DNA of 64,000 nt from Candidatus Aenigmatarchaeota archaeon (GCA_016198755.1 JACQIB010000005.1:32001-96000), one strand, 5' to 3'; shown: positions 14,055-36,985, counted from the stretch's first letter. Translations and numbers: made by a program. Notes: a model not told the origin generated them from the sequence alone.

Positions 14055-14423
14055 TTATGTGGTTGCTGTTACTCCTGCTTTCTGTTTTGGTGCAGGTAAG
14101 TTAGTGCAGCCGCATACAATAACCTTGCAGTATGCTTCTGCATCTTCATATTTGCTGGAATCTGGTTTCTCTTCACAATAAGTAGACAGTGATCTTTCAG
14201 AACCTGTAGGCCAGTCTATTGTAACACCAGAAGTTGAGCCCACACACCCGCCTGTTTTCAATGTTCCGCAGGCTTTGTTAACTGCAGAAAGCTCAGCCAA
14301 AAGACCGGTTGGACCTGAGGTTGTTACAACATAAAGCAGTATCAAACCTAAAAGTACAATAACAGCTATAGCCAGAATAACCAGAACATTAACAGGGAGT
14401 TCCACTCCTTTCAGGTTTCGCAT
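14055..14423 (-). CDS. Type IV pilin-like protein (class III signal peptide)
   Basis: MRNLKG|VELPVN then hydrophobic helix; 6 Cys. Confidence 0.8.
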   Translation of the reverse strand: MRNLKGVELPVNVLVILAIAVIVLLGLILLYVVTTSGPTGLLAELSAVNKACGTLKTGGCVGSTSGVTIDWPTGSERSLSTYCEEKPDSSKYEDAEAYCKVIVCGCTNLPAPKQKAGVTATT

Positions 14424-14463
14424 AGCTATTCTTTTGTCAGGGTTGGTTTATAAATCTGTACCT

Positions 14464-14772
14464 TTATGCCCCTGGGCACTTGCATATAGCTTTACAGTCC
14501 TGCCCTGCGTATTTATCTGCACAGAGAGCTCCAAGGTTGTCTCCAGATCCGCCTGTCTGCCCATCTTGATTTACATCATAATCCACGCTTATTTCTGTAA
14601 GGTCAGAAACCTTACCGCAGCCAATTGTCTGCAGTTTAAAGCAGCCAGAATTAATTGCTTGCTGCCAGCCAAGATCTTTCGGGAACATTATAACAAATAT
14701 AGCAATAACTGCAATTAGGACGATAATAGCTATTAACAATATAACGGTTGTGTTTACTGGGAGCTCAGGCAT
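14464..14772 (-). CDS. Pilin-like protein, paralog of 14055-14423
   Basis: MPELPVNTTVILLIA; C..L...GC and CK.I..C pattern shared. Confidence 0.75.
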   Translation of the reverse strand: MPELPVNTTVILLIAIIVLIAVIAIFVIMFPKDLGWQQAINSGCFKLQTIGCGKVSDLTEISVDYDVNQDGQTGGSGDNLGALCADKYAGQDCKAICKCPGA

Positions 14773-14802
14773 CCTTCTGTTTTGTCCTGCCTGAATATAA
14801 GG

Positions 14803-15828
14803 CTAACCCTTTGGGAAGGTAAAGTCAGATCTGGCTTCAAACTTTAGCTCCATGTTCACAGCAGCAACCCCCTTCCCTTCTGCTACTGTTCCCTTCTCTG
14901 TGGATAGGGCAGGAGCATAGCTTTTAGGGTCTTTTATTGAAACAGAAGTTTTAACATAAAGGTTTCTATTTGCCCCTACAACAGCATCCTCAACACTGCT
15001 CGTTATTGTATACTCATATCCGTACTTTTCTTTTAACTTTTGGGCAATTGCTTTGTTTACTTCTGAAAGCAATGGTATTGCTTTTTCCCTTGTTGGATCT
15101 GAAAGGCTGGAAATACCCGGCTTATTGGAAAAACCGCAGTACTGGGAGAAATTAAGCATATCCTGTATTTTTGCTGTTGCTTCGCTGGAAACAGCTATGT
15201 CTGTTCCATTTACCCTGCATTTATCAGAGACTTGCAAAATAGAGTTAGAGACAGAAGCTGTGCCTGTCCAGTATTCACCCTCAAACAGCCTTCTGCCTGC
15301 ATCAAAAACTTGGTAGAAATTGCTGTTTACTGTTATTATATAGGCGTTGTCAAGCTTGTTTGTTATTGTTTCTTTTGAATCTGAAGCTGTAACTGGAAGG
15401 GAAGCTGAGATAAGAAAGCAGGATTTGTCTGCACAGGGTTTGGGCTGGTTGAGTTCTAAAGTTCCAAATTTCAGCTTTTTATTTCCCATATCTACAGTCT
15501 CCCTTGGAAAGCTTTCTATTATACCCCTTCTGAGTTCATCTGTAGCCAAAGCTTCTGAGGGCTCAGCCAGAGTCCAAACCCTAGGGAAGCGCAGCCCGCT
15601 GTTCTGCAGATTCTCATAAGCCTGCCTCTCAGCTACATATTCTATTGAAGCTTCTGCAGCAGAGGAAGTTGCAGCTGCAAGGTCAGAAATCTTTATTATA
15701 TTTGCTGAATTGTCTATCACTGTTACAACAACTGATTTGGTTGTTAAAAGGTATAAAAGTGTTACAGCGGAAATAAGTATTATTGCCCCGAGAATCCCCC
15801 ATACCATTATTGTTCCTTTCATTCTCAT
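14803..15828 (-). CDS. Minor pilin-like protein
   Basis: MRMKG| plus TM helix; S/T-rich extracellular region. Confidence 0.7.
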   Translation of the reverse strand: MRMKGTIMVWGILGAIILISAVTLLYLLTTKSVVVTVIDNSANIIKISDLAAATSSAAEASIEYVAERQAYENLQNSGLRFPRVWTLAEPSEALATDELRRGIIESFPRETVDMGNKKLKFGTLELNQPKPCADKSCFLISASLPVTASDSKETITNKLDNAYIITVNSNFYQVFDAGRRLFEGEYWTGTASVSNSILQVSDKCRVNGTDIAVSSEATAKIQDMLNFSQYCGFSNKPGISSLSDPTREKAIPLLSEVNKAIAQKLKEKYGYEYTITSSVEDAVVGANRNLYVKTSVSIKDPKSYAPALSTEKGTVAEGKGVAAVNMELKFEARSDFTFPKG

Positions 15829-15832
15829 TTTT

Positions 15833-16312
15833 TCACCCCGTTAAAAGCTCCAGTTTTGTTACAGAGCCATCAGCCAGAACAACAGGAACTGAGGCACTGT
15901 TTATCCTGCGCGTTAAAAGATCAGAATCTCCTGCTATTATAACCTCAGGTTCTGTTGTACGCAGCAGGAAACTGGAAGAACCTGTAAGCTCCTTCAAATC
16001 CTCTTCCATTTCAGTTTTCGGGTTTAAAACTTTCCCTCTTACTAAAATATCCTTTCCTCTCCCTTGGCTTGCTGCAGCAACAACCAGCTCTTTCATTTGT
16101 ATCCCTTCGGGGGTTTTAACCTCTAAAAAGGAAAGTAAAGCTGCGTCTGTTTTAACAGGCTCCTGCAAAACATTTACAGTAACGCTTATCCTTACTAACT
16201 GAATATCTAAAAGCACAGCATAGAACACTGCTGTAACTATTGCTGTCCCAAATATTATCATTACCAAAAAGAGGAATGTTGCACTGAAAAGCCCAATTCC
16301 TTTCTGCTTCAT
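15833..16312 (-). CDS. Minor pilin-like protein
   Basis: MKQKG| plus TM helix. Confidence 0.7.
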   Translation of the reverse strand: MKQKGIGLFSATFLFLVMIIFGTAIVTAVFYAVLLDIQLVRISVTVNVLQEPVKTDAALLSFLEVKTPEGIQMKELVVAAASQGRGKDILVRGKVLNPKTEMEEDLKELTGSSSFLLRTTEPEVIIAGDSDLLTRRINSASVPVVLADGSVTKLELLTG

Positions 16313-16698
16313 AGTCCCACCTTCAGCACCGCTGGGTATACCCTACCCTCGCGGGTTTTTACTGCAACAGGAAGCTCAAACCCATATGGGTTACCGAGCT
16401 GCCAGGTTTTTGTTTTCCCTGTTACGGAAAACACTATATTCTGGCTTTTCAGGCAGCTCACGCTCTGGCTTGAAACAACAGAATCAAGCTTCTCCTCAGA
16501 GAAAACACCTATTTTTTCTGTTAAGCAGGAGGCTGAACTAAGCAGCTTTGCGAAATAGATTTCCTGTACATGTTCAGTGTTTGCGTATATATTAAAATTA
16601 TAGTGTACAACAACAAGGAATATTGCAAGTATAGTAATAATGCCAAAAATCATTGCAAGCATGTTTAGTATCCTTTCATCCAAATCTGTAATGTTCAT
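16309..16698 (-). CDS. Pilin-like single-TM protein
   Basis: Start MNITDL directly after the upstream stop; N-terminal TM; two Cys. Confidence 0.65.
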   Translation of the reverse strand: MNITDLDERILNMLAMIFGIITILAIFLVVVHYNFNIYANTEHVQEIYFAKLLSSASCLTEKIGVFSEEKLDSVVSSQSVSCLKSQNIVFSVTGKTKTWQLGNPYGFELPVAVKTREGRVYPAVLKVGL

Positions 16699-16699
16699 T

Positions 16700-17152
16700 C
16701 TAGTCAGCCTCCACTGAAACTTTACAGCCCTCACCTGATAGTTTTGTTATCCTTATCTCATGCCCAGGCCCTTTTGGTATTATAAGTTCTGATGGGGGAA
16801 CTGGGGTTAAAGAACATTCAGCTAGGGTAAGCTGCATTGGCTGCGCAGGCTTATAGTCTATTTTAACATCAAAAATTGGCACAACCTGCACGAATTCATT
16901 TCCTCCGGTTTTTGTAAACCTTAATTTAAGCGGATTTCCCTGCCCCTTGTATACAGCTGTAAATTCTCCTGGAGAAACTGAAGCTATGCTTATTGCTGTT
17001 GAAATAAAATTCTGGGCCTGTATAGGCTCTGCATATAACTGCAGAATTGCTGCGTTGGAAGCCACACCATCCGGACCAAATACTGTCCACAAGATAACTA
17101 CAACCAGAACAACTTCTGTAACAATATTGAAGTATACTCCTGAGCTTGCCAT
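16700..17152 (-). CDS. Pilin-like single-TM protein
   Basis: N-terminal hydrophobic helix; operonic. Confidence 0.65.
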   Translation of the reverse strand: MASSGVYFNIVTEVVLVVVILWTVFGPDGVASNAAILQLYAEPIQAQNFISTAISIASVSPGEFTAVYKGQGNPLKLRFTKTGGNEFVQVVPIFDVKIDYKPAQPMQLTLAECSLTPVPPSELIIPKGPGHEIRITKLSGEGCKVSVEAD

Positions 17153-17155
17153 ACA

Positions 17156-17506
17156 CTAAGATTCTGCACGTGAGAACAAAAGGCTTTTGGTTGCTCCCCC
17201 CAGCATGCTGAAAATAACCATTATAGCTGGCCCAAGCAAAAGAGAGAGGAAGTCTGAGGTTGGAAGGAAAATAAAAGGTAAAAATTCAGACAAAATAGGC
17301 AGGGAAAAATAAACAATAAGGAAGAGAATGCCTCCGAAAATAGAGGCTATAAAAGCGCTGAAAATATTTTTTGTAAAAGTTGGGCCGCGAGCTCCCAAAA
17401 ATCCAGTTGCTGCACCTGCAATAATAAAGTTCCATGGATAAATAAAAAACCCTAGCAAAAAGCCCAAACCAGCTCCTGCTATAGTTCCATAAAAGATATT
17501 TTTCAT
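17156..17506 (-). CDS. Small polytopic membrane protein
   Basis: Gly-rich hydrophobic helices (3-4 TM). Confidence 0.7.
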   Translation of the reverse strand: MKNIFYGTIAGAGLGFLLGFFIYPWNFIIAGAATGFLGARGPTFTKNIFSAFIASIFGGILFLIVYFSLPILSEFLPFIFLPTSDFLSLLLGPAIMVIFSMLGGATKSLLFSRAES

Positions 17507-20043
17507 TTTACTGCCTCTTTTTTAGTTGTAGTTGTTTCTGAGGGAATAAGTGCTTCCCTCATTTTCTCTGGTGTAAGGCTTGAGAAAGTTTTTGACATAT
17601 CCTTTGGCCAGCTTATTGTACCCTCCCAGAAGGCTTGGATTAAGGTTGCAGGATCAGCCTCTGAAAACCCCGACTTAACAAGCGCTTTTGTAGCAGTGCT
17701 TTCCCCTCCTGTCAAAACCGCCTCCACAACTGTTATTATGTCACTGGTCCCCCAGATTTTCAGATACTCGCGAGCATAATCAACATCCACATAACAATAG
17801 TTTGAAGCTTTATCCCCCAAATCTGTTTTGTCCATTGCAACAAAAACTGTTGGCTCACCCTCATAATCCTGAACTTTCCAGATTTTTGCAGTGCCCATAC
17901 AGGGTCCAACCAAATGGAAGCGGGGATTGGGGGGGATTGACATTAGCGCAGCCTGTATTCCTGCAAACCTTTCTAACCCAAGCGGTCTCCAGCTGCGCAC
18001 AAAAAACTTTTTAGAATCATTGTTAAGGTAAATAGGTTTCTCAAACCTCTGCCCATGTGCATACAAACATATAGAATTATCTGTGCAGGTCTCTTCTACA
18101 GTAGCCTGTGTTATTTCTCCTTTCCACCACCAGCCGCGCACATTTGCAAACGCAGTTACATCCAGAGTCACTACTTTATTTACCTCCAGCTTACCAAACT
18201 GCATTGGTATTGTTACTGGGAGCGCATTTGTGTTCTGCTCTGCAAAACCTATGAACCGCATTCTTTCTACTGGAGCTGTGCCAACAACGTTCCCTGCATC
18301 ATCTAAAATTTCCTGCTCCTTGAAAACATAATTATCCAAATAATCCCCATAGTAAGCTTTTGACCATTCATAATTGTCAGATTTCATTGTATTTTGCGCC
18401 AGCTTGGTTATCCTGTTTATCTCCTCCTCTGTAGGTGCTGATGTCTTATACACAATTTTTACCTTCTGCCCAAGCGTTTGTTTTGAAATACGCTGCTGCA
18501 CTTCAAAAACAAAATTCTCGTCCACCACTCTCGCAGGATCTTCCTCAAACATTTCCTTTATTATTTTGTATTGCAAAAGCTTTGAGTCACGCGGAATAAA
18601 CGCTGATTGAGCAGTGTTTTCTGAAAGCTGTCGCAAGTATTTCTGGAAAACTGTATTATCTACATAACTCTCAGACTTGAAACCAAGCTTTTTGGCAACA
18701 GTTGCCTTAAGCCTTGTGTAGGGGTGGATAGCCTCCAGTTTTGCCCAATTTTCCGCAGTCATCCTGTCTCCAAGCGCATCCACAAGTCCATTCCTTTCCA
18801 CATAATCCATATTATGCCTCTCCACAGCATACCCAAGACTGCTCAATGAAATTTTAAACTTTTCCCACTTCTGTATAAGTGGTTTGTATCCTTCCTTGAA
18901 AAATTGTGTCTGGGAAATTTCAAACTCACGTACAACACGCGCAGACGTCACATCCTTGTAATGGATAAGGTCTTTGTCTTTCCAATCTGTAGAAAACATT
19001 TTCCTGAGCCTTGCAGCCTCATTAGGCTCTGCAAAATCATTCAAATACGTTTCGAAAAGCTCTGTTGGAGTATATTGAAGGGTTCCGAAGCCTGCCGGAG
19101 GTATTGGATCCATTGTTTCGGCTATTTCAATTATTTTTCCCCCCTCTTCTTTGAAGTGTATATACCTTACTGTTCCATCATTGTCTATAATCTGTAGTGG
19201 TATTTTCTTTTTTGATATTGGAATTTTCCCGTCATTTGTAAGTACTGAAAAAACCTTAATTCTCGACCCCTCTGGTATTTCTCCTGCAAGCTCTGCAGAG
19301 CCCAAATCAGCAATATACACAGAATCATCGAAAAAGCCTATTTTTGAAAGGGATCCCACTTCTGTTTTGCCTATCCTTTTGTAAGCTGTGGTTACAAGCA
19401 TGTCTATTCCTCTCTCCTGCTTTTTTGCTATTATTGATGGATCCAGATTCAAATCCTTCGAAAGAGCTTCACCCCCGCCGCGTGCATTCTTTTCAACAAA
19501 TTCCACTCTTTCAGAATTTTTTATGGCTGCTCCAGCAGAGCGGAGGAATTGATTGGTTTTGTAACCAGCTTCCGCTGCTCCGCGTCCAATTATTTTCGAA
19601 CCCCCAACCAGAAGTGCTTTTCCAGAGCGGAAAGCTCCCCAGAAAACTAACTGCCCGCCTGCTCCACCGCTCCATGGATAGCTCTCTTCCCACATTGCAG
19701 CACCACCTGAGAAAAATCCCTCCGGAAAGCGCTCATAATAAACCTGATACTGCGGAACAGAACCCCCCCAGAAAGCTCTCCAATATCCTTCAAGTCCATC
19801 AGTGTGTTCTTGGCAGAGCTTTACATCAGCTGTATCATAGTAAATAGGATCTGTTGGCTGGGAATCTCCATTCCAGTAAGGGAAATCTGGAGAGGAAACT
19901 CTATCTACTCCTCTGGAAAGCCCAAGAGCTGTCTGGTTTGCCAATCCTGTACATTCCACAGAACCGAAAACATTCATTAAAACAATAAACAAAGCAAACA
20001 AAAACAATATTCCAACAACAACCTTCATTGCTTCCTCAGGCAC
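17503..20043 (-). CDS. Large single-TM protein with Cys-free central insert
   Basis: N-terminal TM, Cys-containing N and C regions, no Cys between C77 and C653. Confidence 0.8.
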   Translation of the reverse strand: MPEEAMKVVVGILFLFALFIVLMNVFGSVECTGLANQTALGLSRGVDRVSSPDFPYWNGDSQPTDPIYYDTADVKLCQEHTDGLEGYWRAFWGGSVPQYQVYYERFPEGFFSGGAAMWEESYPWSGGAGGQLVFWGAFRSGKALLVGGSKIIGRGAAEAGYKTNQFLRSAGAAIKNSERVEFVEKNARGGGEALSKDLNLDPSIIAKKQERGIDMLVTTAYKRIGKTEVGSLSKIGFFDDSVYIADLGSAELAGEIPEGSRIKVFSVLTNDGKIPISKKKIPLQIIDNDGTVRYIHFKEEGGKIIEIAETMDPIPPAGFGTLQYTPTELFETYLNDFAEPNEAARLRKMFSTDWKDKDLIHYKDVTSARVVREFEISQTQFFKEGYKPLIQKWEKFKISLSSLGYAVERHNMDYVERNGLVDALGDRMTAENWAKLEAIHPYTRLKATVAKKLGFKSESYVDNTVFQKYLRQLSENTAQSAFIPRDSKLLQYKIIKEMFEEDPARVVDENFVFEVQQRISKQTLGQKVKIVYKTSAPTEEEINRITKLAQNTMKSDNYEWSKAYYGDYLDNYVFKEQEILDDAGNVVGTAPVERMRFIGFAEQNTNALPVTIPMQFGKLEVNKVVTLDVTAFANVRGWWWKGEITQATVEETCTDNSICLYAHGQRFEKPIYLNNDSKKFFVRSWRPLGLERFAGIQAALMSIPPNPRFHLVGPCMGTAKIWKVQDYEGEPTVFVAMDKTDLGDKASNYCYVDVDYAREYLKIWGTSDIITVVEAVLTGGESTATKALVKSGFSEADPATLIQAFWEGTISWPKDMSKTFSSLTPEKMREALIPSETTTTKKEAVK

Positions 20044-20047
20044 TCTA

Positions 20048-20314
20048 TCACCCTGCGCAGCCGCAGGTTTTGTTTACCTGCTGCTCAGTATATCCAAGCC
20101 TGCTTTGCAAATCCCCAAAAGTATACTGCTCATTGCACTGTATGTTATAATTTTTACAGACAGGTGCAAACTTTGAACAGCAGGCTAAAAGGGCTCCATA
20201 GTCTCCGCCCTGTGATATAGGTAAGTATACAAAAAAATAAAGTATTGCAGACAGTGCAACTATTAACACAAGCACTATTATAAGCGCTGTTGTTGTGTTT
20301 ATTGGCATCTCCAT
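20048..20314 (-). CDS. Small Cys-rich pilin-like protein
   Basis: MEMPINTTTALIIVLV; ACC...C...C...CGC. Confidence 0.75.
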   Translation of the reverse strand: MEMPINTTTALIIVLVLIVALSAILYFFVYLPISQGGDYGALLACCSKFAPVCKNYNIQCNEQYTFGDLQSRLGYTEQQVNKTCGCAG

Positions 20315-20318
20315 GATA

Positions 20319-20684
20319 TCACTTCACAGCAATATTTGAGCTACATATCTGCCCGCAGTTTGCCTTGCACTCATTCCATGCTGCGGAATCTGTCTCCCCA
20401 AAGTCTGAGATAGATCTTCCTGTCCTGTCAGAGCAGAACTGGCGCAGCCCAGGCTTTGTTTTATCCCCAGGAACCTCTATAAACCTCTGATCTTCAAGTA
20501 TTCCTGCAGAAACTTTACATCCAACCTGAGCCCATTTCCCGCAATAATTCACTTTATTCACATCATCCCCGGGTTTTTGGCCAAGCTGCAGGGCTATTAC
20601 AGCAATTGCCCCTACTATAATAACTATCACAGCAAAAATAACAAAGTTCTTAAGTGTGCTTGGTGCTTCAGAATCCCCTTTCAT
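20319..20684 (-). CDS. Pilin-like protein (class III signal-like)
   Basis: MKG|DSEAP plus TM; 6 Cys. Confidence 0.75.
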   Translation of the reverse strand: MKGDSEAPSTLKNFVIFAVIVIIVGAIAVIALQLGQKPGDDVNKVNYCGKWAQVGCKVSAGILEDQRFIEVPGDKTKPGLRQFCSDRTGRSISDFGETDSAAWNECKANCGQICSSNIAVK

Positions 20685-20716
20685 GGATTTAGGTAGTATT
20701 TGATAGGAGATAAACC

Positions 20717-20845
20717 TTACGCTGGGTTTAAATTTCCTAAATAAGGCAGAACAAACAGGGTTATTACAGCCACAAGCACTATTACAGCAGCTGACATTAT
20801 CAGTATTTTTGCGAGCAGCATTATATCCCCCTTTCCTATTTTCAT
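20717..20845 (-). CDS. 42-aa mini-pilin (not in ORF track)
   Basis: MKIGKG|DIMLLAKILIMSAAVIVLVAVITLFVLPYLGNLNPA*; ATGA overlap with the upstream stop. Confidence 0.75.
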   Translation of the reverse strand: MKIGKGDIMLLAKILIMSAAVIVLVAVITLFVLPYLGNLNPA

Positions 20846-21156
20846 GTGCTCACCCTTTTTGCCGGCTTGCAGTATGTGCCTTCACATACATTTCCCGCCG
20901 GACAGTCCTTTCCTGAAGCACAGCCGCACTGTTTTTCAGAAATTCCTTCACTCGCTCTTACTATACAAATGAACCCTTCTGGGTTGTCCTTACAGTTATC
21001 ATTTGTTGAGCAAGCAGCTGTCAGAGTTGTACTTGTGTTTCCATCTACAGGCCTGTTGTACAGATTCTGGGAAAAAGCTAAAACAACCATAATAAACACT
21101 AATATTCCACCAACAAGGAGTGCAGCTTGGTCAAAATCTCCCTTCATTTTATTCAC
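20842..21156 (-). CDS. Cys-rich pilin-like protein
   Basis: MNKMKG|DFDQ plus TM; 8 Cys in two C-x4-C modules. Confidence 0.75.
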   Translation of the reverse strand: MNKMKGDFDQAALLVGGILVFIMVVLAFSQNLYNRPVDGNTSTTLTAACSTNDNCKDNPEGFICIVRASEGISEKQCGCASGKDCPAGNVCEGTYCKPAKRVST

Positions 21157-22976
21157 CCTGTTACTTTTACTGTGGCTGTGTTTATAATGTTGCCCTGTCC
21201 CGTAAGCCTTACAAATCTAAATGGATCTGCTATAAAGGTAGTATCTTTAGTGAAATTCTGCCCGCTTGTTCTGTACAGTTCTTTCCATGTTTTTCTATCA
21301 GTAGAAAACTCAACTTTAACTTCATCTCTGGAAGAGAAAGTTGCTTCTATACTGGCAGAGAGTTTTGTATATTCTTTTCTCAAATCAAACTCTATTTTAT
21401 CTTTCCCGCAATCATCTCCCAAAGGAACCCCATTACCGCAGCTGTCTGTTCCGACAATTTCCCCATCCCCCTCTGCAGGCAGTATTACTATAGACCTATC
21501 CAAAGCCCCAGCCCTTTTTGCAAATACACCAGCCTGTATAAGCTTTGGGTCATCTAGGCTGCAGCGCTGAAAATCTGATGTCTTCCGATAAAAACGTTTC
21601 CCATCAAAACAGAATGGCTTTCCATCCCCCTGTCTCTCCTCTTTGAACTCTCCTGCAATGTCCCAATTGAAAATATATATTGTATAGGTTTTCCCTGCAT
21701 CAAGAGTGGAGAGTGGAGATAACGCAGTTATGTGATTTATACCTCCCTTCCCAAGAAACTGCGCAGCTTGTGTCCCTCCACTCTTATAAAATAAGTTTAC
21801 ATTAAGCTTGTTCCCGTTCTCATCTTCCCTTAGCTGGACCTGTTGGTATTCAGTTATGTTAGAAGCTGCTTTTCCTATACACTCTTCCTTGTTATTGCAG
21901 GTTCCAATATCAAAATCAAATCCTGATTTATCCTGTATCAATCCTACAAAATCCTCTATAGAAATGCTGTTTGTTACAGAATAATCTGAAATCTCCGTTA
22001 GTCTGAGCTCAGGTATCAATGAGCCTGCTTCTTCTGTTCTCTTAAAGTTTTTCAGATAATAAGAAAGCTGGTCTGCAACAGCTCCGCTTGACAGTGAAGG
22101 CTCTGAAGAGTGCTTTGGTATGCGCAGAAAATCTATATTGTATTTACAGCCTGAACCGCATTTCTTTTCCTTTGGATTCTCATATGGAACCCATTTAACA
22201 AGGTAAAGCATGGTATTGGAACTTGGATAAAGGGAGGGGGGGCTCTTTCCTTTTTCAAGTTTGTCTGAAACAAGATAAGAACTGTTTGTTATATCAGTCT
22301 GCCAGACTGTTATTTTGTCTTCCCCGCCACAAAGAGAAGAACAGCTCTCACCCTGCAACGGGCTGGAAACAGAATCTGTTCCAAAGGTTTGTGAACCAAC
22401 AGAAACGCAGTTGCTGTTCCCAAACTTTAAGGTTTCCAAAGAATTGTGCACAAAGCGGGAAAGTGTTCCGCAGATTTTCTGACCTGAAAATTCTCTGAGG
22501 GAAAGTTGTTTTGTAAGGCATTGTTCATCTAACAGCGGGGAACACGGAGAGCATGATTGAACAGTTAACTTATCCCTTTCTTTCTGGGATAAATCATTAT
22601 AATAGACAGGCCTCTGCTTTTCAGAATTCCATGGAACATCAAATGTACCCCAGCCTACAATACTGTCTTTGCTGAAAGGAAGGGAAGCACCATGTGGATA
22701 GTTGCCGTTGGAAACAAAATCAGATGATATATCCTTTGCTATTTTACATGAAATCTGTGAACTTGTAAGCGGCTGTCCATCCTCTGTTAAATTTATCTGA
22801 GGCACAACACCAAGCATATCCAGAAATTCAAAACCATTTGGAGTTTCAACCCCTGGTTTTGTAGGGAAAGGATTAAAATCCAAGTTAATTAGCTTCAAGA
22901 AAGATCCAAAGAGTAAAAGAGCTATAACTGCTGCAACAACAATAACAAGCAGTGTTATAGTACTAATCCTGTCCAT
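21153..22976 (-). CDS. Large pilus-associated adhesin-like protein, paralog A, with C-terminal discoidin-like domain
   Basis: N-terminal TM; shared core motifs; C-terminal IEFDL..VEFSTDRKTWK..RFVRLT. Confidence 0.7.
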   Translation of the reverse strand: MDRISTITLLVIVVAAVIALLLFGSFLKLINLDFNPFPTKPGVETPNGFEFLDMLGVVPQINLTEDGQPLTSSQISCKIAKDISSDFVSNGNYPHGASLPFSKDSIVGWGTFDVPWNSEKQRPVYYNDLSQKERDKLTVQSCSPCSPLLDEQCLTKQLSLREFSGQKICGTLSRFVHNSLETLKFGNSNCVSVGSQTFGTDSVSSPLQGESCSSLCGGEDKITVWQTDITNSSYLVSDKLEKGKSPPSLYPSSNTMLYLVKWVPYENPKEKKCGSGCKYNIDFLRIPKHSSEPSLSSGAVADQLSYYLKNFKRTEEAGSLIPELRLTEISDYSVTNSISIEDFVGLIQDKSGFDFDIGTCNNKEECIGKAASNITEYQQVQLREDENGNKLNVNLFYKSGGTQAAQFLGKGGINHITALSPLSTLDAGKTYTIYIFNWDIAGEFKEERQGDGKPFCFDGKRFYRKTSDFQRCSLDDPKLIQAGVFAKRAGALDRSIVILPAEGDGEIVGTDSCGNGVPLGDDCGKDKIEFDLRKEYTKLSASIEATFSSRDEVKVEFSTDRKTWKELYRTSGQNFTKDTTFIADPFRFVRLTGQGNIINTATVKVTG

Positions 22977-24445: not shown

Positions 24446-24447
24446 AA

Positions 24448-26887: not shown

Positions 26888-26895
26888 TGAAACAC

Positions 26896-27108
26896 CTAAA
26901 TTATAAGCCAGGCGCACTGGCTCTTTGCATCAGAAAAGGGTGGGGGCTTTAAAATACCTTTCTCATGGGCCTGTATACATAATCCTCTAAAGGGCGGGGT
27001 TCCGCCAGTGGAAGAGAGAAAAAAGCCTATGAAAAGAATGGAAGCTACAAGAGCTACCAAAATTAAAATAACCAGATTCGCACCAGACATCATTGGCCAT
27101 GTAACCAT
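26896..27108 (-). CDS. Small single-TM pilin-like protein
   Basis: TM and Cys pair; abuts the upstream stop. Confidence 0.65.
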   Translation of the reverse strand: MVTWPMMSGANLVILILVALVASILFIGFFLSSTGGTPPFRGLCIQAHEKGILKPPPFSDAKSQCAWLII

Positions 27109-27258
27109 TTATCTCAACCTGCTCCCCCATTTTAAAAACTCCCAGATTTTATTCATAGGAATGACCTGTGTTAGTATAATAATAGAAATAATAACAGCAA
27201 ATACAACCAAGAGTATTACGAAAGCAGGCCTTGTTGCAAATTCTGATCTTGTCTGCAT
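27109..27258 (-). CDS. 49-aa single-TM microprotein (not in ORF track)
   Basis: MQTRSEFATRPAFVILLVVFAVIISIIILTQVIPMNKIWEFLKWGSRLR*. Confidence 0.7.
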   Translation of the reverse strand: MQTRSEFATRPAFVILLVVFAVIISIIILTQVIPMNKIWEFLKWGSRLR

Positions 27259-27259
27259 T

Positions 27260-27430
27260 TTAAACACCCAGAACAGCCCTTATAGGGTATAGCAGCCCTG
27301 AGGGGTTTGTTATTGTTGTTTTTTGGGAAAGTACAAAAGCCAAAATAAGTGCAACAATTATACCTAAAGCTGCCATAAGGAATATAAAATTCCATGCACC
27401 CTCATGCAAAGTTTCTATATCAAAAGCCAT
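27260..27430 (-). CDS. 56-aa single-TM microprotein (not in ORF track)
   Basis: MAFDIETLHEGAWNFIFLMAALGIIVALILAFVLSQ..VLGV*; TAATG overlap with the platform gene stop. Confidence 0.7.
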   Translation of the reverse strand: MAFDIETLHEGAWNFIFLMAALGIIVALILAFVLSQKTTITNPSGLLYPIRAVLGV

Positions 27431-29733: not shown

Positions 29734-29851
29734 TCTATCTCCCAGTTTAGAATAGACTTTCCCAATATAAAAAAGCCCTAATTCACTTTCTGCCGTTGAG
29801 GCAACATTATTTATTCATGCAAATCCATTATTTCCCAGGGAGCATGTTAAA

Positions 29852-31477
29852 ATGGGGCGCAAATCCAGCTTAACAACAGGTCAAAAGGCAAGCATAAGGC
29901 ATTATGCTGAACAGGGTGAAGGACCTTCTGGTATCTCCTATTATACAGGCATTTCTCCGAGTAAGGTAAGTTATTATCTGAAATCACTTGAAAGAGAACA
30001 GGCTGGGAAAGGCAATGGAAATAGACAATATAGAAATAGGAATGGACCTGCTCCGGTGGCTGAGACAGCTACAGAAGCTGGGAAACACGGACGCGGTCCA
30101 GGAAGAACAAGTAACTCTACAGTGTTTATGATAGAGCAGATGGCTGCGCATGGCTATAATACTGAACAGATTTTAAATACACTGGGAGTCTCTGCTCATG
30201 TAGCAGAAAAATATTCTGATTTTGATGTTAGAGCCTATTTGGAAGCGAAAACTCCAACAGAAGCTGATGTGGAAAAGAAGGTAGATAGAAGGATATTGAG
30301 ACAGGAAACAATAGAAAAAATAAAAGCCTTGGCAAGGGAGGGACGCACTATAGCCGGTATAGTGGAGGAAACTGGAGTGAGCAATAGATCTATATCCAAA
30401 TATGCTGGCGCTGAACTGAATGAACGGTTGGGGGGAGAGAAGAGACAGGGAACAAGGCTGACTGCTGAAGAGAGGGAAACAATAATAGCTGCTATAGGAA
30501 CAGGAAAATATTCTGGCCCATCTGAAGTTGGAAGTGAGTTTGATATTTCCTATCACACAGCAAATGCGCTCTGGAAATCAACGGGTAGAAAAGTAAGAGC
30601 TATTGGGGAAAAACCCGAAACAACCAGGGAGCGAGGCATTAGGCTGACAAAAGAGGAGGCAGCAACTATGGACATGGCTATATTGTCTGGAATATACACA
30701 CACCCAGCAGATGTTGCAAGGGAGTTCCATGTTTCTTACCAGACAGCGCGCATCCACTGGGAAACAGCTAGAGTAGCTGTTACAAAGCCAACTGTCTTGA
30801 TAGAGCCTCCTAAACCAACGCCACCCAAAGATTTGAAAATAGGGATTAGTGCTGCTAATGCTGAGCGGTTGGATACATTATGGGGACAGGGAATCAGGAC
30901 AGTAAACGGGCTGCATGAGCGCACAGGGTTTAGTAGGCATATGGTTGGCAGGTATATGGAGGGGAGGGGATTGATATCAGAGAGGAGCAGGAGAGAAGAA
31001 CAGATAACAAAAGATAACAGGCCTGCTATGCCACCAGTGATTCTGGAAGATCTTTCAGCTGCGATTATACTACATGCTGGGGAGAAGAAAATGGAAAAGG
31101 AAGCTGCAGAACAGACTGCGCAGCATGTTCTTAACTTTTTTGGCTACTCTAACAGGATTATAGATAATATACTGGAGCCTGAAGACAGGGACATTTTTTA
31201 TATGTTAGAGGATGCTGGGATAGCTACAACAGAAAGAGAGGAAACAACTTTATATGATGGGAGGGAATGGAGAATACACTATTGGGTGTTTAATCATGAT
31301 AGGATAAAACAGATTTTGGCTCCTCTAAAAACTGCAAAGAGAGAGAAAAGTCCTGAAGATGTGTATGAGGAGCTGGATGATGGGTTATGGCATGGTCATG
31401 GAGCAGAACCTGTTGAAGGGGTTCATGTTACTAACGGGTTGGTAGCAGCTCAGGCTGGAGCAAGAGGCTCTGGTTAA
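29852..31477 (+). CDS. Six-HTH repeat protein with C-terminal DUF6015-like domain
   Basis: Six LT..E...I.....G......(G/F).S...V..Y units; C-terminal HVLNFFGYSNRIIDNILEPEDRDIFYMLEDAG. Confidence 0.75.
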   Translation: MGRKSSLTTGQKASIRHYAEQGEGPSGISYYTGISPSKVSYYLKSLEREQAGKGNGNRQYRNRNGPAPVAETATEAGKHGRGPGRTSNSTVFMIEQMAAHGYNTEQILNTLGVSAHVAEKYSDFDVRAYLEAKTPTEADVEKKVDRRILRQETIEKIKALAREGRTIAGIVEETGVSNRSISKYAGAELNERLGGEKRQGTRLTAEERETIIAAIGTGKYSGPSEVGSEFDISYHTANALWKSTGRKVRAIGEKPETTRERGIRLTKEEAATMDMAILSGIYTHPADVAREFHVSYQTARIHWETARVAVTKPTVLIEPPKPTPPKDLKIGISAANAERLDTLWGQGIRTVNGLHERTGFSRHMVGRYMEGRGLISERSRREEQITKDNRPAMPPVILEDLSAAIILHAGEKKMEKEAAEQTAQHVLNFFGYSNRIIDNILEPEDRDIFYMLEDAGIATTEREETTLYDGREWRIHYWVFNHDRIKQILAPLKTAKREKSPEDVYEELDDGLWHGHGAEPVEGVHVTNGLVAAQAGARGSG

Positions 31478-33726
31478 GGAGCTTTCTTTGCCTGTTCTCT
31501 GAACCAGTTTTGCCATAAATTGAAAACCCTGTCAGCTTCTACAGAACCAACTTCCTGCCTTACTGTTTCTGAGAATCTGTGGAAAGCTTGGTTGCTTGCA
31601 ACCACTGTAGGGGCTTCCAAAAGGGCTGGCTTTCCTGTGGCTCCTGCCACGCGCACAATCTCACTCAAAACTTTTGCCCTTAACTGTATATTGTCCCAGA
31701 CAGAATCCCATCTGCCAGCCCATCCCGGCACTCTTTTTGCTATATCGTTCAGTATTTGGCTTTCTCCTGTTAACAGAGTATCTGTTGGTTTTAAAGAATC
31801 TGAGCGGGAGTTATATTCTAACAGATTTACAAATCCATGTTCTTCAGCAGGATCCTTTGTCCAGTGCTTTCTAACCTCAGTAACTTCTGTTACCCTTCTG
31901 AAACTTCTTAATCCATCAGCGCTGCGGATTTTGTTTGCAACAACAATTAAATCAGTGGCTTTAAAGCTTGTTGCAGGAACTCCTAAATCATTTACAACCC
32001 TGTCAAAAACCCCATAAGCGCTTTCCCCGTGTATAGTTCCGGCAACAACATTTGCTAAAGCTCCAATCCTCATTGCCTCGTACAGGGCTATTGCTTCTCT
32101 CGATCTTACCTCGCCAATAAACAGACAGGAATCTCCCATTCTAAGAGCTGTTCTGATAGCCTCCTCAGCAGAAAGCTCAAGCTCAACTTTTGTTATAACA
32201 CTTCTGGATTTCATTCTTTCAACATTATAGCTCAGCTTTCTCAGAGCCTCTATTGGAAGTTCATAAGTATCCTCAACTGTAATAATTCTGTAATAAGGGA
32301 TAACCTGCAACATTAAGGAACCGAGTAGAGAAGTTTTTCCAGAGCCTCTGGTTCCTGCAACTAACAGTGTTCTCCCGTATGTTGTGAAAAACCAGAGCAA
32401 ACCAGCTGTTAGTGGATCAAAGAAATGGTTTTGTATAAATAATGGAAATGTCCATGGTTCAAACCTGTGCCTTCTGAAAGCAAAAGCTAATCCTTCCGGT
32501 GAAACTCTTGGCCCAATAGCTGCTACTCTTGCAACACCTCCTGGAACAGATATTTCAGTGTCTAAAACAGGATTTGCCTCGTCTAATGGGCGGCCTGATA
32601 AAAGCTTAAATCTTGTTGACCATCTCTCCCCGTCCTCTTTTGTTGGAATAATATTTGTTTCACATTCATCAAATTCCTGATGTAGAATAAAAAGCGGTTG
32701 TTCACCCAATGGGCTGTTTATGTGTATATCCTGTATCTTTGAGTCTGCAAGCAAAAGCTCCAGTACCCCCAATCCTGTAGTATACCTAGTAAGTATTTGT
32801 GCTAACTCTTCAAGTTTTTCCTGTGAAAAGTTAAACCTGCGCAGGCTTGATATGTCCCTTAAAAGTTCTAGAGAAATAGAATGGAAAATATCCCTCATTT
32901 TCTCCTGATCTCTGACCTCAAACTCCTGCGGCTTTCTCTCCTCCAGAGCCTTCCTTGAATCATCCAGTACAGTATATTCTTCCTCACTCAAAACAAATTC
33001 GGGCGGAGTTATCTGGTAAATGGGCCTTACTTTTCCAGGAACCTTAAAAATCTCAACTCTTGTTCCCCCGACATTATACTTGTCTATTATTTCCCCGCCT
33101 GCCGGAGGTTTTAACACAAACTTTGTAAGCATAAAGTTAGGTCTTATTATTGGGTGGAACAGTTTTCTGTATACTGAACGATCCCCTATATGGTAGCCTG
33201 TTAAAAAGGGCTGGGCGTTTTTAATTAGGTCTGTTTTTCCCAAAATTGTTTTTATAGGCTCCAGAACAGCTGATAAATAATGTTCAAGCGCTTTTTTCTC
33301 CTTTTCATTTTCTGTTCTTTTCAAAATTATTTTTATATGCCTTATTTCCCTTTCGATATCTAAATATCCTCCTATAGGATCCCCCCTCAACTGGACTGAA
33401 ACAAGTGTATAAAGCCAGCTTTTCCATTTGTCGAAAAACTTGCCGGAAATGGATTTGTCCAGATTTTCATCTGATATAATTTTTTCCTCCATTACGATCC
33501 TGTTTATTGAAGCTGCAATCTGAACAAGCATTTTTGTCTGCTCTGGACCATACTCATTTTCCCTCGTTTCTGCCATTACAACGCTTGTTACTTTTCTCTC
33601 TGAAAGCAGCTTATCTACTACCCGTGCCATGCAAACATCAAAGTCTTCTATGCTGGAGCCAAACAATGCTCCGGAGCAGTTTATCTTCATCCTCCCATCC
33701 TTCAGTTCTGTTACCTCATAAACCAA
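31474..33726 (-). CDS. Type II/IV secretion ATPase (VirB11/TadA family)
   Basis: Walker A GTRGSGKT, ITVEDTYEL, ALRMGDSCLFIGEVRS, GTIHG; TTG start at 33726 after a GGGGGAG SD. Confidence 0.93.
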   Translation of the reverse strand: MVYEVTELKDGRMKINCSGALFGSSIEDFDVCMARVVDKLLSERKVTSVVMAETRENEYGPEQTKMLVQIAASINRIVMEEKIISDENLDKSISGKFFDKWKSWLYTLVSVQLRGDPIGGYLDIEREIRHIKIILKRTENEKEKKALEHYLSAVLEPIKTILGKTDLIKNAQPFLTGYHIGDRSVYRKLFHPIIRPNFMLTKFVLKPPAGGEIIDKYNVGGTRVEIFKVPGKVRPIYQITPPEFVLSEEEYTVLDDSRKALEERKPQEFEVRDQEKMRDIFHSISLELLRDISSLRRFNFSQEKLEELAQILTRYTTGLGVLELLLADSKIQDIHINSPLGEQPLFILHQEFDECETNIIPTKEDGERWSTRFKLLSGRPLDEANPVLDTEISVPGGVARVAAIGPRVSPEGLAFAFRRHRFEPWTFPLFIQNHFFDPLTAGLLWFFTTYGRTLLVAGTRGSGKTSLLGSLMLQVIPYYRIITVEDTYELPIEALRKLSYNVERMKSRSVITKVELELSAEEAIRTALRMGDSCLFIGEVRSREAIALYEAMRIGALANVVAGTIHGESAYGVFDRVVNDLGVPATSFKATDLIVVANKIRSADGLRSFRRVTEVTEVRKHWTKDPAEEHGFVNLLEYNSRSDSLKPTDTLLTGESQILNDIAKRVPGWAGRWDSVWDNIQLRAKVLSEIVRVAGATGKPALLEAPTVVASNQAFHRFSETVRQEVGSVEADRVFNLWQNWFREQAKKAP

Positions 33727-33800
33727 GCCAAACTCCCCCCTTCTTTTATATATATAGGACAATAAAACTATATTTATCTTTACAGATAAAGGTTTTCCAA

Positions 33801-34142
33801 ATGCCAGAAGTGAATCTTTCAACAGTGCTGAACGAGGCTTTTAGGAGGCTTAATGAAGCTTCCAGAAGATTGAGAGCTTCTGAAGAGAGGTATGATGTTC
33901 TTGAAACAAGGCTGGAAGGGCTGCAAAATACAATGCTTAAAATCAGCGATGAGCTTTCAGGGAAGATAGAGAAAAGTTCAGGGGAACAGAAGGATTTTGA
34001 AGCAAGGTTAGTTAGGATAGAAGCAGATCTTACAAAAATTGGGCAGGCTATGGAAAAGAGCGCAAAATCCTCTGATTTGGAGGAGTTAAAGAATCTTGTG
34101 GAGCTTTATTCCCCGTTTAAAGAAAAGAGAAAGAGTGATTGA
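33801..34142 (+). CDS. Small coiled-coil protein
   Basis: MPEVNL..RRLRASEERYD..LEELKNLVELYSP; start moved to ATG 33801. Confidence 0.7.
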   Translation: MPEVNLSTVLNEAFRRLNEASRRLRASEERYDVLETRLEGLQNTMLKISDELSGKIEKSSGEQKDFEARLVRIEADLTKIGQAMEKSAKSSDLEELKNLVELYSPFKEKRKSD

Positions 34143-34143
34143 A

Positions 34144-34791: not shown

Positions 34792-35313
34792 CTACTGACG
34801 CTGCTGTGGGGGCCCTTCCTGTTTCTCCTTTCCTTCCATTACCATCCATATTATAGCAACTATTATTACAATGAAGAAGAATAATGTTACATTTGCCTGC
34901 CCAGAAATATCTATTTGAGGGAATCCAATAAGCTGTAGCCCGCCTGCTCCAACGAAAACAAGCACTGCTATTATCACAAGAGCTGCAGCAAAATATACTT
35001 CGTACTTTTTAATCAGCGTCCCGCCCTTTCCAATTCCAGCTATTTCTAAAAATACCAACAAAATGAGTATTCCCAATACAACCATTACAAGAGCTGAAGA
35101 TAGTTTTGAAAGGAAGCTAATTATTTCTGTGGGAGCTGAAAAAATAACCAAAAACCCTACAACTATAGAGATTATTGCACGTGCAGCATTTGATTGCGGA
35201 AGCTTTACTTGATGTAAAACTCCGTAAACTATTGCAAAGCTCAAAAGCCAGAGCAGTATCTCTGGAAACCCTAAATTTTGTAATGTTGATAAAAATTCAG
35301 CCATTTTTTCCAC
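34792..35313 (-). CDS. Polytopic membrane protein, paralog 1
   Basis: LLWLLSFAIVYGVLH..KLPQSN; about 5 TM; probable ATG at 35304. Confidence 0.75.
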   Translation of the reverse strand: MEKMAEFLSTLQNLGFPEILLWLLSFAIVYGVLHQVKLPQSNAARAIISIVVGFLVIFSAPTEIISFLSKLSSALVMVVLGILILLVFLEIAGIGKGGTLIKKYEVYFAAALVIIAVLVFVGAGGLQLIGFPQIDISGQANVTLFFFIVIIVAIIWMVMEGKEKQEGPPQQRQ

Positions 35314-35316
35314 CTA

Positions 35317-35838
35317 TTATTTTTTATCCCCGCCTGGCATACCTTCTTTGTACATAAACCAGAAGGCAACCGCGATTATTATTGCGAAAATTACTATCGC
35401 AACAAGTGTATCAGATATTTCTGGAACAGAGATATTTATAACACTCAACCCGCCTGCTCCAATGAAAACAGAGAGAAGAATAAGCAAAATAATGCCTCCG
35501 AAGAACTTTGGATGTGCCATGAAAATATGGGTTCCGCCTGTTTTAACCTGTCCTATCTCAAGGAAGATTACAGCAACTAACAGTCCAACAGCAATCAATA
35601 CTCCAGCTACCACAAGGTTCTGGAGGAAAGCTACAGCTGGGGAAGCTGCTGATGCTAAAAGAACAAGGAAAGCAGCTGAAAGTGCAATTACCCCTTTTGC
35701 AGTGTTTGACTGGGGTATTTTTGCATGGTGTAACATCCCATAAACAACAGCTAAAGTAAGCAGCCAGAGTAAAACCAAAGGGGCTCCAGCATCCCTCAAA
35801 ATCACAATCATATCTTCAATTCCTGCCATTTTAACCAA
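35317..35838 (-). CDS. Polytopic membrane protein, paralog 2
   Basis: LLWLLTLAVVYGMLH..KIPQSN; probable ATG at 35829. Confidence 0.75.
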   Translation of the reverse strand: MVKMAGIEDMIVILRDAGAPLVLLWLLTLAVVYGMLHHAKIPQSNTAKGVIALSAAFLVLLASAASPAVAFLQNLVVAGVLIAVGLLVAVIFLEIGQVKTGGTHIFMAHPKFFGGIILLILLSVFIGAGGLSVINISVPEISDTLVAIVIFAIIIAVAFWFMYKEGMPGGDKK

Positions 35839-35867
35839 TCCTATTTTGCCTCCTATTTATTTAAAGC

Positions 35868-36353
35868 TCAGCCTGCCTGCTTGGGATCGTACTTATAGGC
35901 TATCCAAAAGATGAAAAATATTAAGACCAGCCCTATAATAAAGGCCAAGTTCTGCGAACCTATACTGGGTATGTTTGGAACAGCTGTTATTCCAACCATA
36001 AGGAAAGCAATGAAAGCCAACCCTACAACAATGAGGGTGAAAGGCTCAACCTTTTCTTTCCCAGTCTTATCCTTTCCTATCCCCAAAGCTTTTGCAAGGA
36101 AAATTATAAAGAAAAATACAACAAAAAACCATGCTAAACCCGGTAGGATTTGAAAGAAGGTTGTTGTAAAAGCACTGTTAGTAGCAGCAAAGAGAGCTAT
36201 TCCCAAAGCTACAACAGCATTAACAGGCTTGCTTTTTAAAACTCCAGCAGTCTGCAGAATCCCGAAAACAATTGCAAAAACAAGGACAAAAGGCAGGTAA
36301 AAGGTTTGGTCTAATAAATTAAATGGTAAGCTGAATTCTGCCATATAAACCAC
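35868..36353 (-). CDS. Polytopic membrane protein, paralog 3
   Basis: LPFVLVFAIVFGIL..VNAVVALGIAL; probable ATG at 36344. Confidence 0.75.
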   Translation of the reverse strand: MVYMAEFSLPFNLLDQTFYLPFVLVFAIVFGILQTAGVLKSKPVNAVVALGIALFAATNSAFTTTFFQILPGLAWFFVVFFFIIFLAKALGIGKDKTGKEKVEPFTLIVVGLAFIAFLMVGITAVPNIPSIGSQNLAFIIGLVLIFFIFWIAYKYDPKQAG

Positions 36354-36985
36354 TAAACAAATTCCTTTGACCTTTCTAGTTCGCGTATCTTAGCTTCTAA
36401 ATCAGCTTTCCTGAGCCTCCATGCATTTCTGGACTCTTCTAATGCCCTTCTCTCATCTCCGGCTTTAGTGGCCGAATAGGCTATATTCAACTCTCTCATC
36501 TTCTCATCACATACAATTATATCACTCTTCAGCCTGTCAATAACCTTTCCCTGCTCCCTTCTAGACCATATTTTTCCACCCGCTTTTTCCAGCAACATGC
36601 CTCTGGCCGCAGTTGTTGAAGGGTGTAATATCTTAGGTAGCATAAAAATAACCAAGCTGGTTCCAACAGTTACGAGCATCCAGAACTGGGCTGCCGAAGC
36701 TATAAATGCGTACCAACCATTCCAGATAACAAAAATGTAAAATGCAAAAGACATTAAGAGTCCCAGACCTTTATGACCGGTTCCTATTCTACTATATACT
36801 ATAAAGAGCCACAAAACTATGACTATATGTGGGAAGAAAAGCAAATTCAATAAATCTGATGTCATATCTCCGGTTGGCTGAATCTTTAGAATCCCGAAAA
36901 TTAACTCTGCAATATTGACTTGAGACAGGTCTGGAATGTTAATATTGGGGAGTGTTCCGGCCCCTATCTGAAAGAGTGGAAACAT
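36353..36985 (-). CDS. Membrane protein with C-terminal coiled coil
   Basis: LFFPHIVIVLWLF, 3 TM, charged helical tail. Confidence 0.7.
   Translation of the reverse strand: MFPLFQIGAGTLPNINIPDLSQVNIAELIFGILKIQPTGDMTSDLLNLLFFPHIVIVLWLFIVYSRIGTGHKGLGLLMSFAFYIFVIWNGWYAFIASAAQFWMLVTVGTSLVIFMLPKILHPSTTAARGMLLEKAGGKIWSRREQGKVIDRLKSDIIVCDEKMRELNIAYSATKAGDERRALEESRNAWRLRKADLEAKIRELERSKEFV

Follow-up and report, generated by a model that had tools for sequence, protein, structure and literature searches.

A Conserved Type IV Filament Locus with Cysteine-Rich Candidate Pilins in an Aenigmatarchaeota Genome

Gene content and motor of the locus

We analyzed a 64,000-nucleotide (nt) stretch of DNA from Candidatus Aenigmatarchaeota archaeon (GCA_016198755.1 JACQIB010000005.1:32001-96000), hereafter called the window, which corresponds to C3:32001-96000 in a genome of 0.89 Mb (6 contigs, 89% complete). 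Positions 14055 to 36985 of the window carry a secretion ATPase, a membrane platform protein, a long run of genes for membrane-anchored proteins, and a set of conserved upstream neighbors. The identity of this locus as a type IV filament (T4F) system is secure; the core parts were identified directly, and the operon-like packing, the prepilin-type leaders, and the conservation and synteny in the order and the phylum were likewise observed. The locus is real and well conserved; it includes several families without a counterpart in Pfam, NCBIfam, or the PDB, and an ATPase clade that is a marker of the phylum. An earlier note, made from the sequence alone, had described a type IV pilus/Tad-like machine here, consisting of the ATPase, the platform, the gene run, two coiled-coil genes, and four polytopic membrane genes. 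All of these items lie where that note placed them, and its assignment held, with the ATPase, the platform, and prepilin-type leaders present and the hallmarks of an archaellum lacking. The features are listed below by window position, with protein lengths in amino acids (aa); ORF denotes an open reading frame and TM a transmembrane segment.

14055..14772, minus strand: two small Cys-rich pilin genes (122 and 102 aa), candidate major pilins
14803..17152, minus strand: four genes (150, 141, 159, and 341 aa) whose set and order are conserved in G031 and G015
17156..17506, minus strand: 3-TM protein (116 aa) that lacks a counterpart in the relatives examined
17503..20043, minus strand: 846-aa membrane-anchored protein (alignments, AlphaFold2 [AF2] model)
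20048..21156, minus strand: four small ORFs (104, 42, 121, and 88 aa), three with an MKG-type leader
21153..26637, minus strand: three large Cys-rich surface paralogues (729, 449, and 607 aa), each with an N-terminal helix, and a 39-aa ORF at 24326-24445
26675..27430, minus strand: three tiny single-helix ORFs (56, 70, and 80 aa), directly after the platform
27430..29733, minus strand: platform of the TadC/ArlJ type (767 aa), PF00482, two T2SSF stretches in one chain
29852..31477, plus strand: helix-turn-helix (HTH) and DUF6015 gene (541 aa), PF19479 at 94.4 bits, HTH_5
31474..33822, minus strand: secretion ATPase of the FlaI/TadA/VirB11 family (782-aa ORF), PF00437
34096..34791, plus strand: coiled-coil cytoplasmic protein (231 aa), divergent from the ATPase
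34792..36985, minus strand: three paralogous 5-TM proteins (173, 173, and 161 aa), plus a membrane protein of 210 aa that ends in a coiled coil

The ATPase, whose true start probably lies near residue 33 and would give a protein of ∼750 aa, scored 63.9 bits with PF00437 (T2SSE; cut-off 24.9) and has an intact Walker A motif (GTRGSGKT, residue 490). Among NCBIfam models, the best was FlaI (130 bits; cut-off 550), followed by TadA (115 bits; cut-off 373), and the best PDB matches were Archaeoglobus GspE (2oap, 110 bits), CpaF (75 bits), and FlaI (63 bits). Its N-terminal domain of ∼290 aa is clade-specific. The platform, with ∼9-11 hydrophobic segments, scored 35.9 bits with PF00482 (cut-off 25.2) and is 49-52% identical to the platforms of relatives. 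The single A24 prepilin peptidase of the genome (254 aa, ∼6 helices) is encoded on another contig (C5:178825-179118; PF01478 at 29.6 bits, cut-off 26.5). As the earlier note had said, the window holds no archaellin, ArlH, or prepilin peptidase: among the window proteins scanned there was no match to PF01917 or PF01478, nor an ArlH-like match. Moreover, PF01917 had no match in the genome as a whole (89% complete), whereas the control was positive in four archaeal genomes.

The genome encodes a second T4F set at C2:188292-192655 and C2:95238-99112, with a 665-aa ATPase and a 597-aa platform, one adjoining KG-leader protein, and a separate cluster with five leader-bearing small proteins. A third T2SSE match is a PIN-domain ATPase that lacks pilus context.

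From the platform to position 14055, the minus strand carries 19 further ORFs of ≥30 aa, of which 18 have a single N-terminal hydrophobic helix (56, 70, 80, 729, 39, 449, 607, 104, 42, 121, 88, 846, 150, 141, 159, 341, 102, and 122 aa, with those of 39 and 42 aa being putative genes) and one has three (116 aa). The run is thus as previously claimed, except that a count of 19 single-TM ORFs plus one with 3-4 TM becomes 18 plus one with three. Since the gaps among the 20 genes from 29733 to 14055 range only from -35 to +40 nt, plus one of 151 nt, the run looks like a single operon. Genome-wide, a single N-terminal helix is found in 118 of 1012 ORFs of ≥50 aa, and 14 of these fall within C3:40-60 kb (binomial P = 1e-12 for at least 14 of 15). 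K/R-G prepilin-type leaders are present in seven ORFs (122, 341, 159, 121, 104, 42, and 729 aa), in agreement with the earlier count of seven; because the class III-type motif occurs in only 7 of the 18, the term "pilin-like" is too generous for the whole set. The only above-threshold Pfam or NCBIfam matches in the run were the two CARDB domains of the 729-aa protein.

Pilin candidates and membrane-anchored proteins of the operon

The 122-, 102-, and 88-aa ORFs belong to one small pilin family, with the consensus MKG↓[IV]ELP[IV]N (the arrow marks the cleavage position), a hydrophobic helix, and a head with six conserved cysteines; the leader of the 122-aa copy reads MRNLKG↓VELPVN. In an alignment of 79 small pilins, Leu9, Pro10, Cys52, and Cys104 are invariant, Lys5 and Gly6 are at least 90% conserved, and a K/R-G leader was recognized by motif in 75. 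The family profile matched 155 clusters at E ≤ 1e-3, none of which carries a Pfam domain. Every functional name among these clusters is "hypothetical" or a mislabel, and the organisms named as sources, which are few, are Aenigmatarchaeota, "Nanoarchaeota archaeon," and one Heimdallarchaeaceae bin. The AF2 model of the small pilin (predicted local distance difference test score [pLDDT] 81.4) has helices at residues 11-35 and 41-57 and a small, mostly helical head; in comparison with the PDB, Foldseek found no match and VIA gave a best Z of 3.7.

Two of the copies are leaderless. The 102-aa copy (14464-14772) starts with MPELPVN and the 88-aa copy (20048-20314) with MEMPINT; both begin at the position of the mature N terminus, lack a charged leader and the glycine, and are preceded closely by an in-frame stop. 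Among the 79 aligned sequences, leaderlessness is confined to the 102-aa copy of the window (1/79), and a leaderless 63-aa copy is also found in L042 (G109), which belongs to another family of the class. This small pilin family, with its six cysteines, its two leaderless copies, and no match in Pfam or the PDB, is new. In L019 (G031), L029 (G015), and L035, an Alba-like gene (..VFVGKKPxMSYVLA..) stands among the operon-end small pilin genes; it is not there in the window.

Among the other small ORFs, the 104-aa ORF has BLAST kin in the loci of four relatives, and in place of the three tiny ORFs after the platform, relatives have two to three ORFs of 59-79 aa, with one BLAST link to G031. In the conserved four-gene set, the KG leader is kept in the 159- and 341-aa families, which are candidate minor pilins, and no such leader is present in the 150- and 141-aa families, which are candidate bitopic assembly proteins.

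The 846-aa protein has conserved, Cys-bearing N-terminal (∼1-135) and C-terminal (∼650-830) parts around a variable middle. An exhaustive HMMER search of 1.84 billion proteins yielded 145 representatives of the family, as compared with only four proteins from a word-index search with the same profile. The family is found in 56 of 301 genomes of the phylum. Leaving aside the genome studied here, 23 of the 33 genomes sampled in the order have it, as do 32 of 267 others of the class. Its AF2 model (pLDDT 80.8) had no usable match in the PDB, with a best Foldseek E of 0.08 and a best Z of 4.4 in a wide VIA-align comparison (saposin-like, 79 residues); the family of ∼850 aa is a new one, and its model lacks a fold match.

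With the profile, proteins of family f3 gave E = 0, as compared with 1e-8 to 1e-14 for proteins of f1, the window's own family; the 846-aa protein of the window is thus far closer to the former. In G002, a member of the same family, the ATPase and platform lie on the 620-kb contig C4, followed by housekeeping genes, and the 846-family gene lies on C10. Together, these two observations hint at rapid divergence or exchange of the pilin module.

The three large paralogues share 24-25% identity over 278-378 aa in a Cys-rich region, and the 729-aa protein combines an MRG leader with two CARDB domains (93 bits); by sequence, it appears adhesin-like. In relatives' loci, hidden Markov model (HMM) searches identified only two counterparts, in L033 (612 aa, 1e-47) and in G015 (525 aa, 9e-14), and the leader is conserved across relatives in the first large protein. 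The large locus proteins of G039 matched PKD (83.5 bits) and LVIVD (212 bits), and those of relatives sometimes gave weak CARDB, Big, or dockerin matches.

Conservation in the order and the phylum

ATPase orthologues are present in 39 of 40 relatives, with 53-68% identity. The N-terminal 288 aa were found in 286 of 301 genomes of the phylum, in 97 of 98 high-quality genomes, and in 146 of 151 genera, mostly as one copy per genome in this sample. They were also found in 131 clusters of the protein collection, nearly all of which are ∼745 aa long. The named sources of these clusters are Aenigmatarchaeota, save for one Heimdallarchaeaceae and one Nanohaloarchaea record; judged by named sources, the ATPase clade thus appears nearly confined to Aenigmatarchaeota. 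A gene-for-gene match to a pilus clade common in free-living archaea, which the earlier note had raised as the case that would speak against it, was not encountered in the comparisons made here. Among the orthologous ATPases, those of G005, G008, G023, G027, G032, G071, and others, as well as of P0269 and P0291, contain an insert of ∼500 aa, giving frames of 1250-2000 aa. The precomputed domains of the inserts are PF14528 and PF14890 (intein with LAGLIDADG endonuclease); an insert is present in a protein 93% identical to the window ATPase in the N-domain, whereas the window copy has none.

In G031, G026, G015, G039, G010, G009, L033, and L035, all of its own order, the platform directly adjoins the ATPase, and 9 to 16 or more single-helix ORFs come next. 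In G002, no single-helix run follows the ATPase and platform; in L038, both an adjacent platform and a run are missing. Of the 22 other genomes of the order with both the ATPase and the 846-family gene, 14 have the latter 5.5-15 kb downstream on the same strand, and the remaining 8 have it on another contig. The locus is therefore typical of its own order and not exceptional, with the operon present in most order relatives. The description of the machine as unusually elaborate accordingly stands in comparison with characterized archaeal pili but not in comparison with its own relatives, whose loci contain 9 to 16 or more such ORFs.

Of ten further families in the class, eight have a full platform after the ATPase and one has a fragment; the coiled-coil gene was detected by HMM upstream of the ATPase in eight and the 5-TM family in seven; and a run of at least seven single-helix ORFs follows the ATPase and platform in four. 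On the basis of this synteny in the order and the ten other families, the phylum-wide core comprises four parts: the ATPase and its platform, together with the coiled-coil gene and the 5-TM paralogues. No pilin run follows in six of the ten families, in G002, and in L038, and therefore the core and the operon are separable; in some lineages the operon adjoins the core, and in others it lies elsewhere.

The coiled-coil gene has BLAST matches in seven of eight relatives' loci, and it and the polytopic membrane genes are conserved neighbors of the ATPase. They travel with it in relatives, which bears out the earlier view that they belong together. The 231-aa coiled-coil protein matched no Pfam family above its cut-off, and the 5-TM and 210-aa proteins had no Pfam or NCBIfam match. 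In the ESM Atlas, one 5-TM protein and the coiled-coil protein matched only "hypothetical protein" clusters (Methanobacteriota, Aenigmatarchaeota, and Nanobdellota), which serve as leads only.

The DUF6015 gene, whose product combines several HTH motifs with DUF6015 at the C terminus, separates the ATPase from the platform; it is convergent with the ATPase gene, with a 4-nt overlap at the ATPase stop. It has no counterpart in the loci of relatives, where the ATPase and platform abut, and DUF6015 matches occur at other places in 9 of 40 relatives. It is a lineage-specific insertion that probably does not belong to the machine, and, judged by its position, it would be expected to make the platform operon transcriptionally independent of the ATPase.

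Beyond the 210-aa membrane gene, five minus-strand genes at 37016-43297 (480, 532, 395, 231, and 400 aa; partly coiled-coil) had no match in Pfam, NCBIfam, or PHROGs and no counterpart in relatives' loci. The distance from the 210-aa gene to the DUF357 gene is 6.3 kb here, as compared with ∼1.4-1.8 kb in G031 and G026 and ∼1 kb in G015 and G039. The five genes look like a genome-specific insertion, and we do not count them in the pilus system; the link to this adjacent orphan array that had been proposed earlier was left unsupported.

The flanks of the locus are occupied by ordinary housekeeping genes of archaea (TFIIB, Hjc, ribonucleotide reductase, and an eIF2-beta-type domain). A PHROGs search with 12 locus and flank proteins gave only weak HTH matches, all for the DUF6015 gene, and the flanks are therefore not evidently viral. 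Two AbiEii-type nucleotidyltransferase genes (115 and 71.8 bits), at window positions 43634-45075 and 45972-47179, each have an adjoining upstream partner gene, with which they likely form type IV toxin-antitoxin pairs. Elsewhere in the genome, on many contigs, an N-terminal ...A(A/G)GCTGQ motif that resembles an archaeal lipobox follows the signal helix of many predicted secreted proteins.

Proposed function and relation to known systems

We propose that the T4F locus builds an adhesive filament for adhesion to a host or a surface, with a probability of roughly 0.6. This proposal is based on (i) the conserved class III leaders, (ii) the small multi-copy pilins at the operon end, and (iii) the adhesin-type domains in the large proteins. 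From the gene content we infer that a filament is made, that one of the small Cys-rich genes would encode its major pilin, that the neighboring proteins would have accessory roles, and that its function would be adhesion, with contact of a host by the pilus being plausible. In the mechanism that we envisage, a hexameric-type ATPase with its phylum-specific N-domain would drive the two-domain TadC/ArlJ-type platform, and the single A24 peptidase, encoded elsewhere, would cleave the K/R-G leaders. The disulfide-rich small pilins (KG↓[IV]ELP[IV]N) would then be pulled from the membrane and polymerized into a surface filament, in which the KG-bearing 159- and 341-aa families would serve as minor pilins, and the large Cys-rich, CARDB-bearing class III protein would be displayed on the surface as an adhesin. 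A scaffold, both membrane and cytoplasmic, would be formed by the non-cleavable bitopic 846-, 150-, and 141-aa families, the tiny ORFs, the 5-TM paralogues, and the coiled-coil protein.

We tentatively extend this proposal to a distinct, unnamed T4F subsystem in Aenigmatarchaeota, which may have relatives in other DPANN, although we regard the extension as considerably less probable than the adhesive filament itself. Such a subsystem would be defined by an ATPase with its own N-domain, a single platform, a divergent coiled-coil protein, two to four 5-TM paralogues, and a new scaffold. It would also have a new class of six-cysteine, helical-head pilins, including naturally leaderless copies that would bypass the peptidase, and its fast-evolving large proteins might be host-specific adhesins that decide which host is bound.

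Several observations weigh against an adhesive filament. Two of the three small-pilin copies in the window are leaderless, and a prepilin-type leader is missing in 11 of the 18 single-helix ORFs. The modeled small pilin has a mostly helical head that lacks a PDB match, so that the pilin fold appears to be supported for its N-terminal helix only. After the ATPase and platform, the pilin run is missing in the genomes named above (six of ten other families, G002, and L038), and 15 of the 24 large proteins of relatives' loci have no Pfam match at E ≤ 1e-3. Finally, the sequence was identified in four DNA runs only, all from one groundwater study that is possibly its source, and in no listed RNA run.

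Some of the same observations would suit other functions. The locus could produce no long pilus but a short pseudopilus or a bindosome-like display, in which large class III-signal proteins (the 729-aa protein and the 341-, 867-, and 970-aa types) are extracted and anchored at the envelope. This would explain why several large proteins keep their K/R-G leaders across relatives and carry extracellular CARDB, PKD, and LVIVD domains, and the functionalization of T4F machines by class III-signal binding proteins has been argued in a recent survey (PMC13705601). We nevertheless consider such a display unlikely, since the small pilins are multi-copy at the operon end and duplicated in G015 and G031, which fits a polymerizing major subunit, since no substrate-binding-protein or ABC transporter genes were recognized in the locus by Pfam or NCBIfam, and since the NCBIfam model for BasE scored 57.9 bits against a cut-off of 1000. 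Somewhat less likely still is that the operon does not encode one machine, and that the ATPase, the platform, and a few pilins cooperate among many unrelated, fast-evolving membrane or surface proteins that merely share it. The lack of a class III motif in 11 of 18 ORFs, the scarcity or absence of counterparts in relatives for the large paralogues, the 116-aa gene, and the small ORFs, and the separability of core and pilin run in other genomes would all agree with this. It is countered by the tight packing, in which stops and starts overlap, and by the 846-, 150-, 141-, and 159-aa families, which several genera share in an unchanged order downstream of the ATPase.

A translocation role, in which the filament or its base would be a conduit for material between symbiont and host, seems improbable to us. 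The reduced 0.89-Mb genome is typical of host-dependent DPANN, and the near-universal presence of the ATPase in the phylum suggests a lifestyle-critical role; on the other side, no effector-like, pore-forming, or nuclease genes were recognized in the locus with Pfam, NCBIfam, or PHROGs, and no T4F machine is known to act as a conduit between cells. The suggestion of delivery or translocation in the earlier note is accordingly unsupported, with no effector-like or channel genes recognized. Least probable of all, in our estimation, would be a pilus for DNA uptake or cell aggregation, by analogy with competence pili or the Ups pilus. While bacteria and Sulfolobales do use T4F machines to take up or exchange DNA (PMC13705601), neither the locus nor the window contains a recognizable DNA-binding, ComEA/ComEC-like, or Ced-like gene.

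The literature on the pili of Aenigmatarchaeota and DPANN yielded no culture of an Aenigmatarchaeota member, and this locus bears on their manner of host contact. A T4F ATPase in 286 of 301 genomes, in a phylum with genomes of <1 Mb, is likely central to the lifestyle, and an ordered operon of 15-23 kb exists in at least one Aenigmatarchaeota order. The small Cys-rich pilin, the 846-aa protein, and the 5-TM and coiled-coil neighbors are candidate families for new profiles, which would let attachment in the phylum be tested by proteomics, cryo-electron tomography, and peptidase assays. The locus would gain in interest should confirmation be obtained for its accessory scaffold, its new class of pilins, and its role in host attachment.

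Among known systems, the archaellum has an ATPase and a platform homologous to those of the locus, and FlaI was the best-scoring NCBIfam model. An archaellum was rejected on the grounds that this model (NF058587) reached 130 bits against 550, that the genome has no archaellin, and that no ArlH-, ArlCDE-, or ArlX-like match was found among the window proteins. The bacterial Tad/Flp pilus likewise has a TadA-like ATPase (TIGR03819, 115 bits; CpaF structures, 75 bits), a T2SSF platform, and small pilins. However, its TadB and TadC are separate and its Flp is headless, whereas the platform here is fused and the pilin has a Cys-rich head, and no match to Flp, secretin (CpaC), TadZ, or TadG was found among the 29 locus proteins in Pfam and NCBIfam. 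With the Aap and Ups pili and the bindosome of Sulfolobales (subsystem 4I/Saci_aap), the locus shares an ATPase, a single platform, class III pilins, a peptidase encoded elsewhere, and the absence of a retraction ATPase. Those systems have two pilins and few accessories, whereas seven leader-bearing ORFs and ∼11 bitopic proteins are present here. A bindosome was rejected, with NF053672 (BasE) at 57.9 bits against 1000 and no substrate-binding-protein family match in the locus. The system 1/Epd pilus of Methanococcus, as described in PMC13705601, resembles the locus in being a component-rich cluster with several pilins and adhesin-like proteins. According to the same description, system 1 has two platform genes (arCOG01811 and arCOG01812) and the 9-TM peptidase EppA, whereas a single two-domain platform and a 254-aa, ∼6-helix peptidase are found here; by these criteria, an Epd-like system 1 was rejected because one 767-aa platform with two T2SSF stretches stands in place of two platform genes.

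Within DPANN, parts of this picture are already in print. Li et al. (2021; PMC8407114) report FlaG/I/J and type IV pili genes in Aenigmarchaeota metagenome-assembled genomes, in a paragraph of that paper. Sivabalasarma and Albers (2026; PMC13705601) describe ordered T4F loci as rare in DPANN, with the ATPase and platform usually close; their account allows that their models may miss pilins and leaves filament formation in DPANN unclear. They list T4F components for Aenigmatarchaeota genomes, many of which are assigned to system 1 by pilin arCOGs; arCOG06620 and arCOG03821 are among the pilin arCOGs of that system. In their Table S4, the assembly containing L035 has an adjacent arCOG01814/arCOG01818 pair, with arCOG03821 and arCOG06117 a few genes away, which is probably the same locus type, although the gene mapping is unconfirmed. 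In the literature searched on Aenigmatarchaeota and DPANN pili, including the text of PMC13705601, we found no paper that describes this locus. The closest precedent is that of Makarova, Wolf, and Koonin (2019; PMC6393860), who present DPANN "dark-matter islands" in which FlaI and TadC are followed by many unannotated signal-peptide or TM proteins, predicted to be diverse pilins. The claim that the system is undescribed must therefore be tempered, since both these islands and T4F components in Aenigmatarchaeota (PMC13705601) have been published. The islands are the same kind of locus, presented in that paper's treatment as one figure example without family-level analysis. To that treatment, the present analysis adds the phylum-wide N-domain of the ATPase, the coiled-coil and 5-TM neighbors, and the small Cys-rich pilin and 846-aa families.

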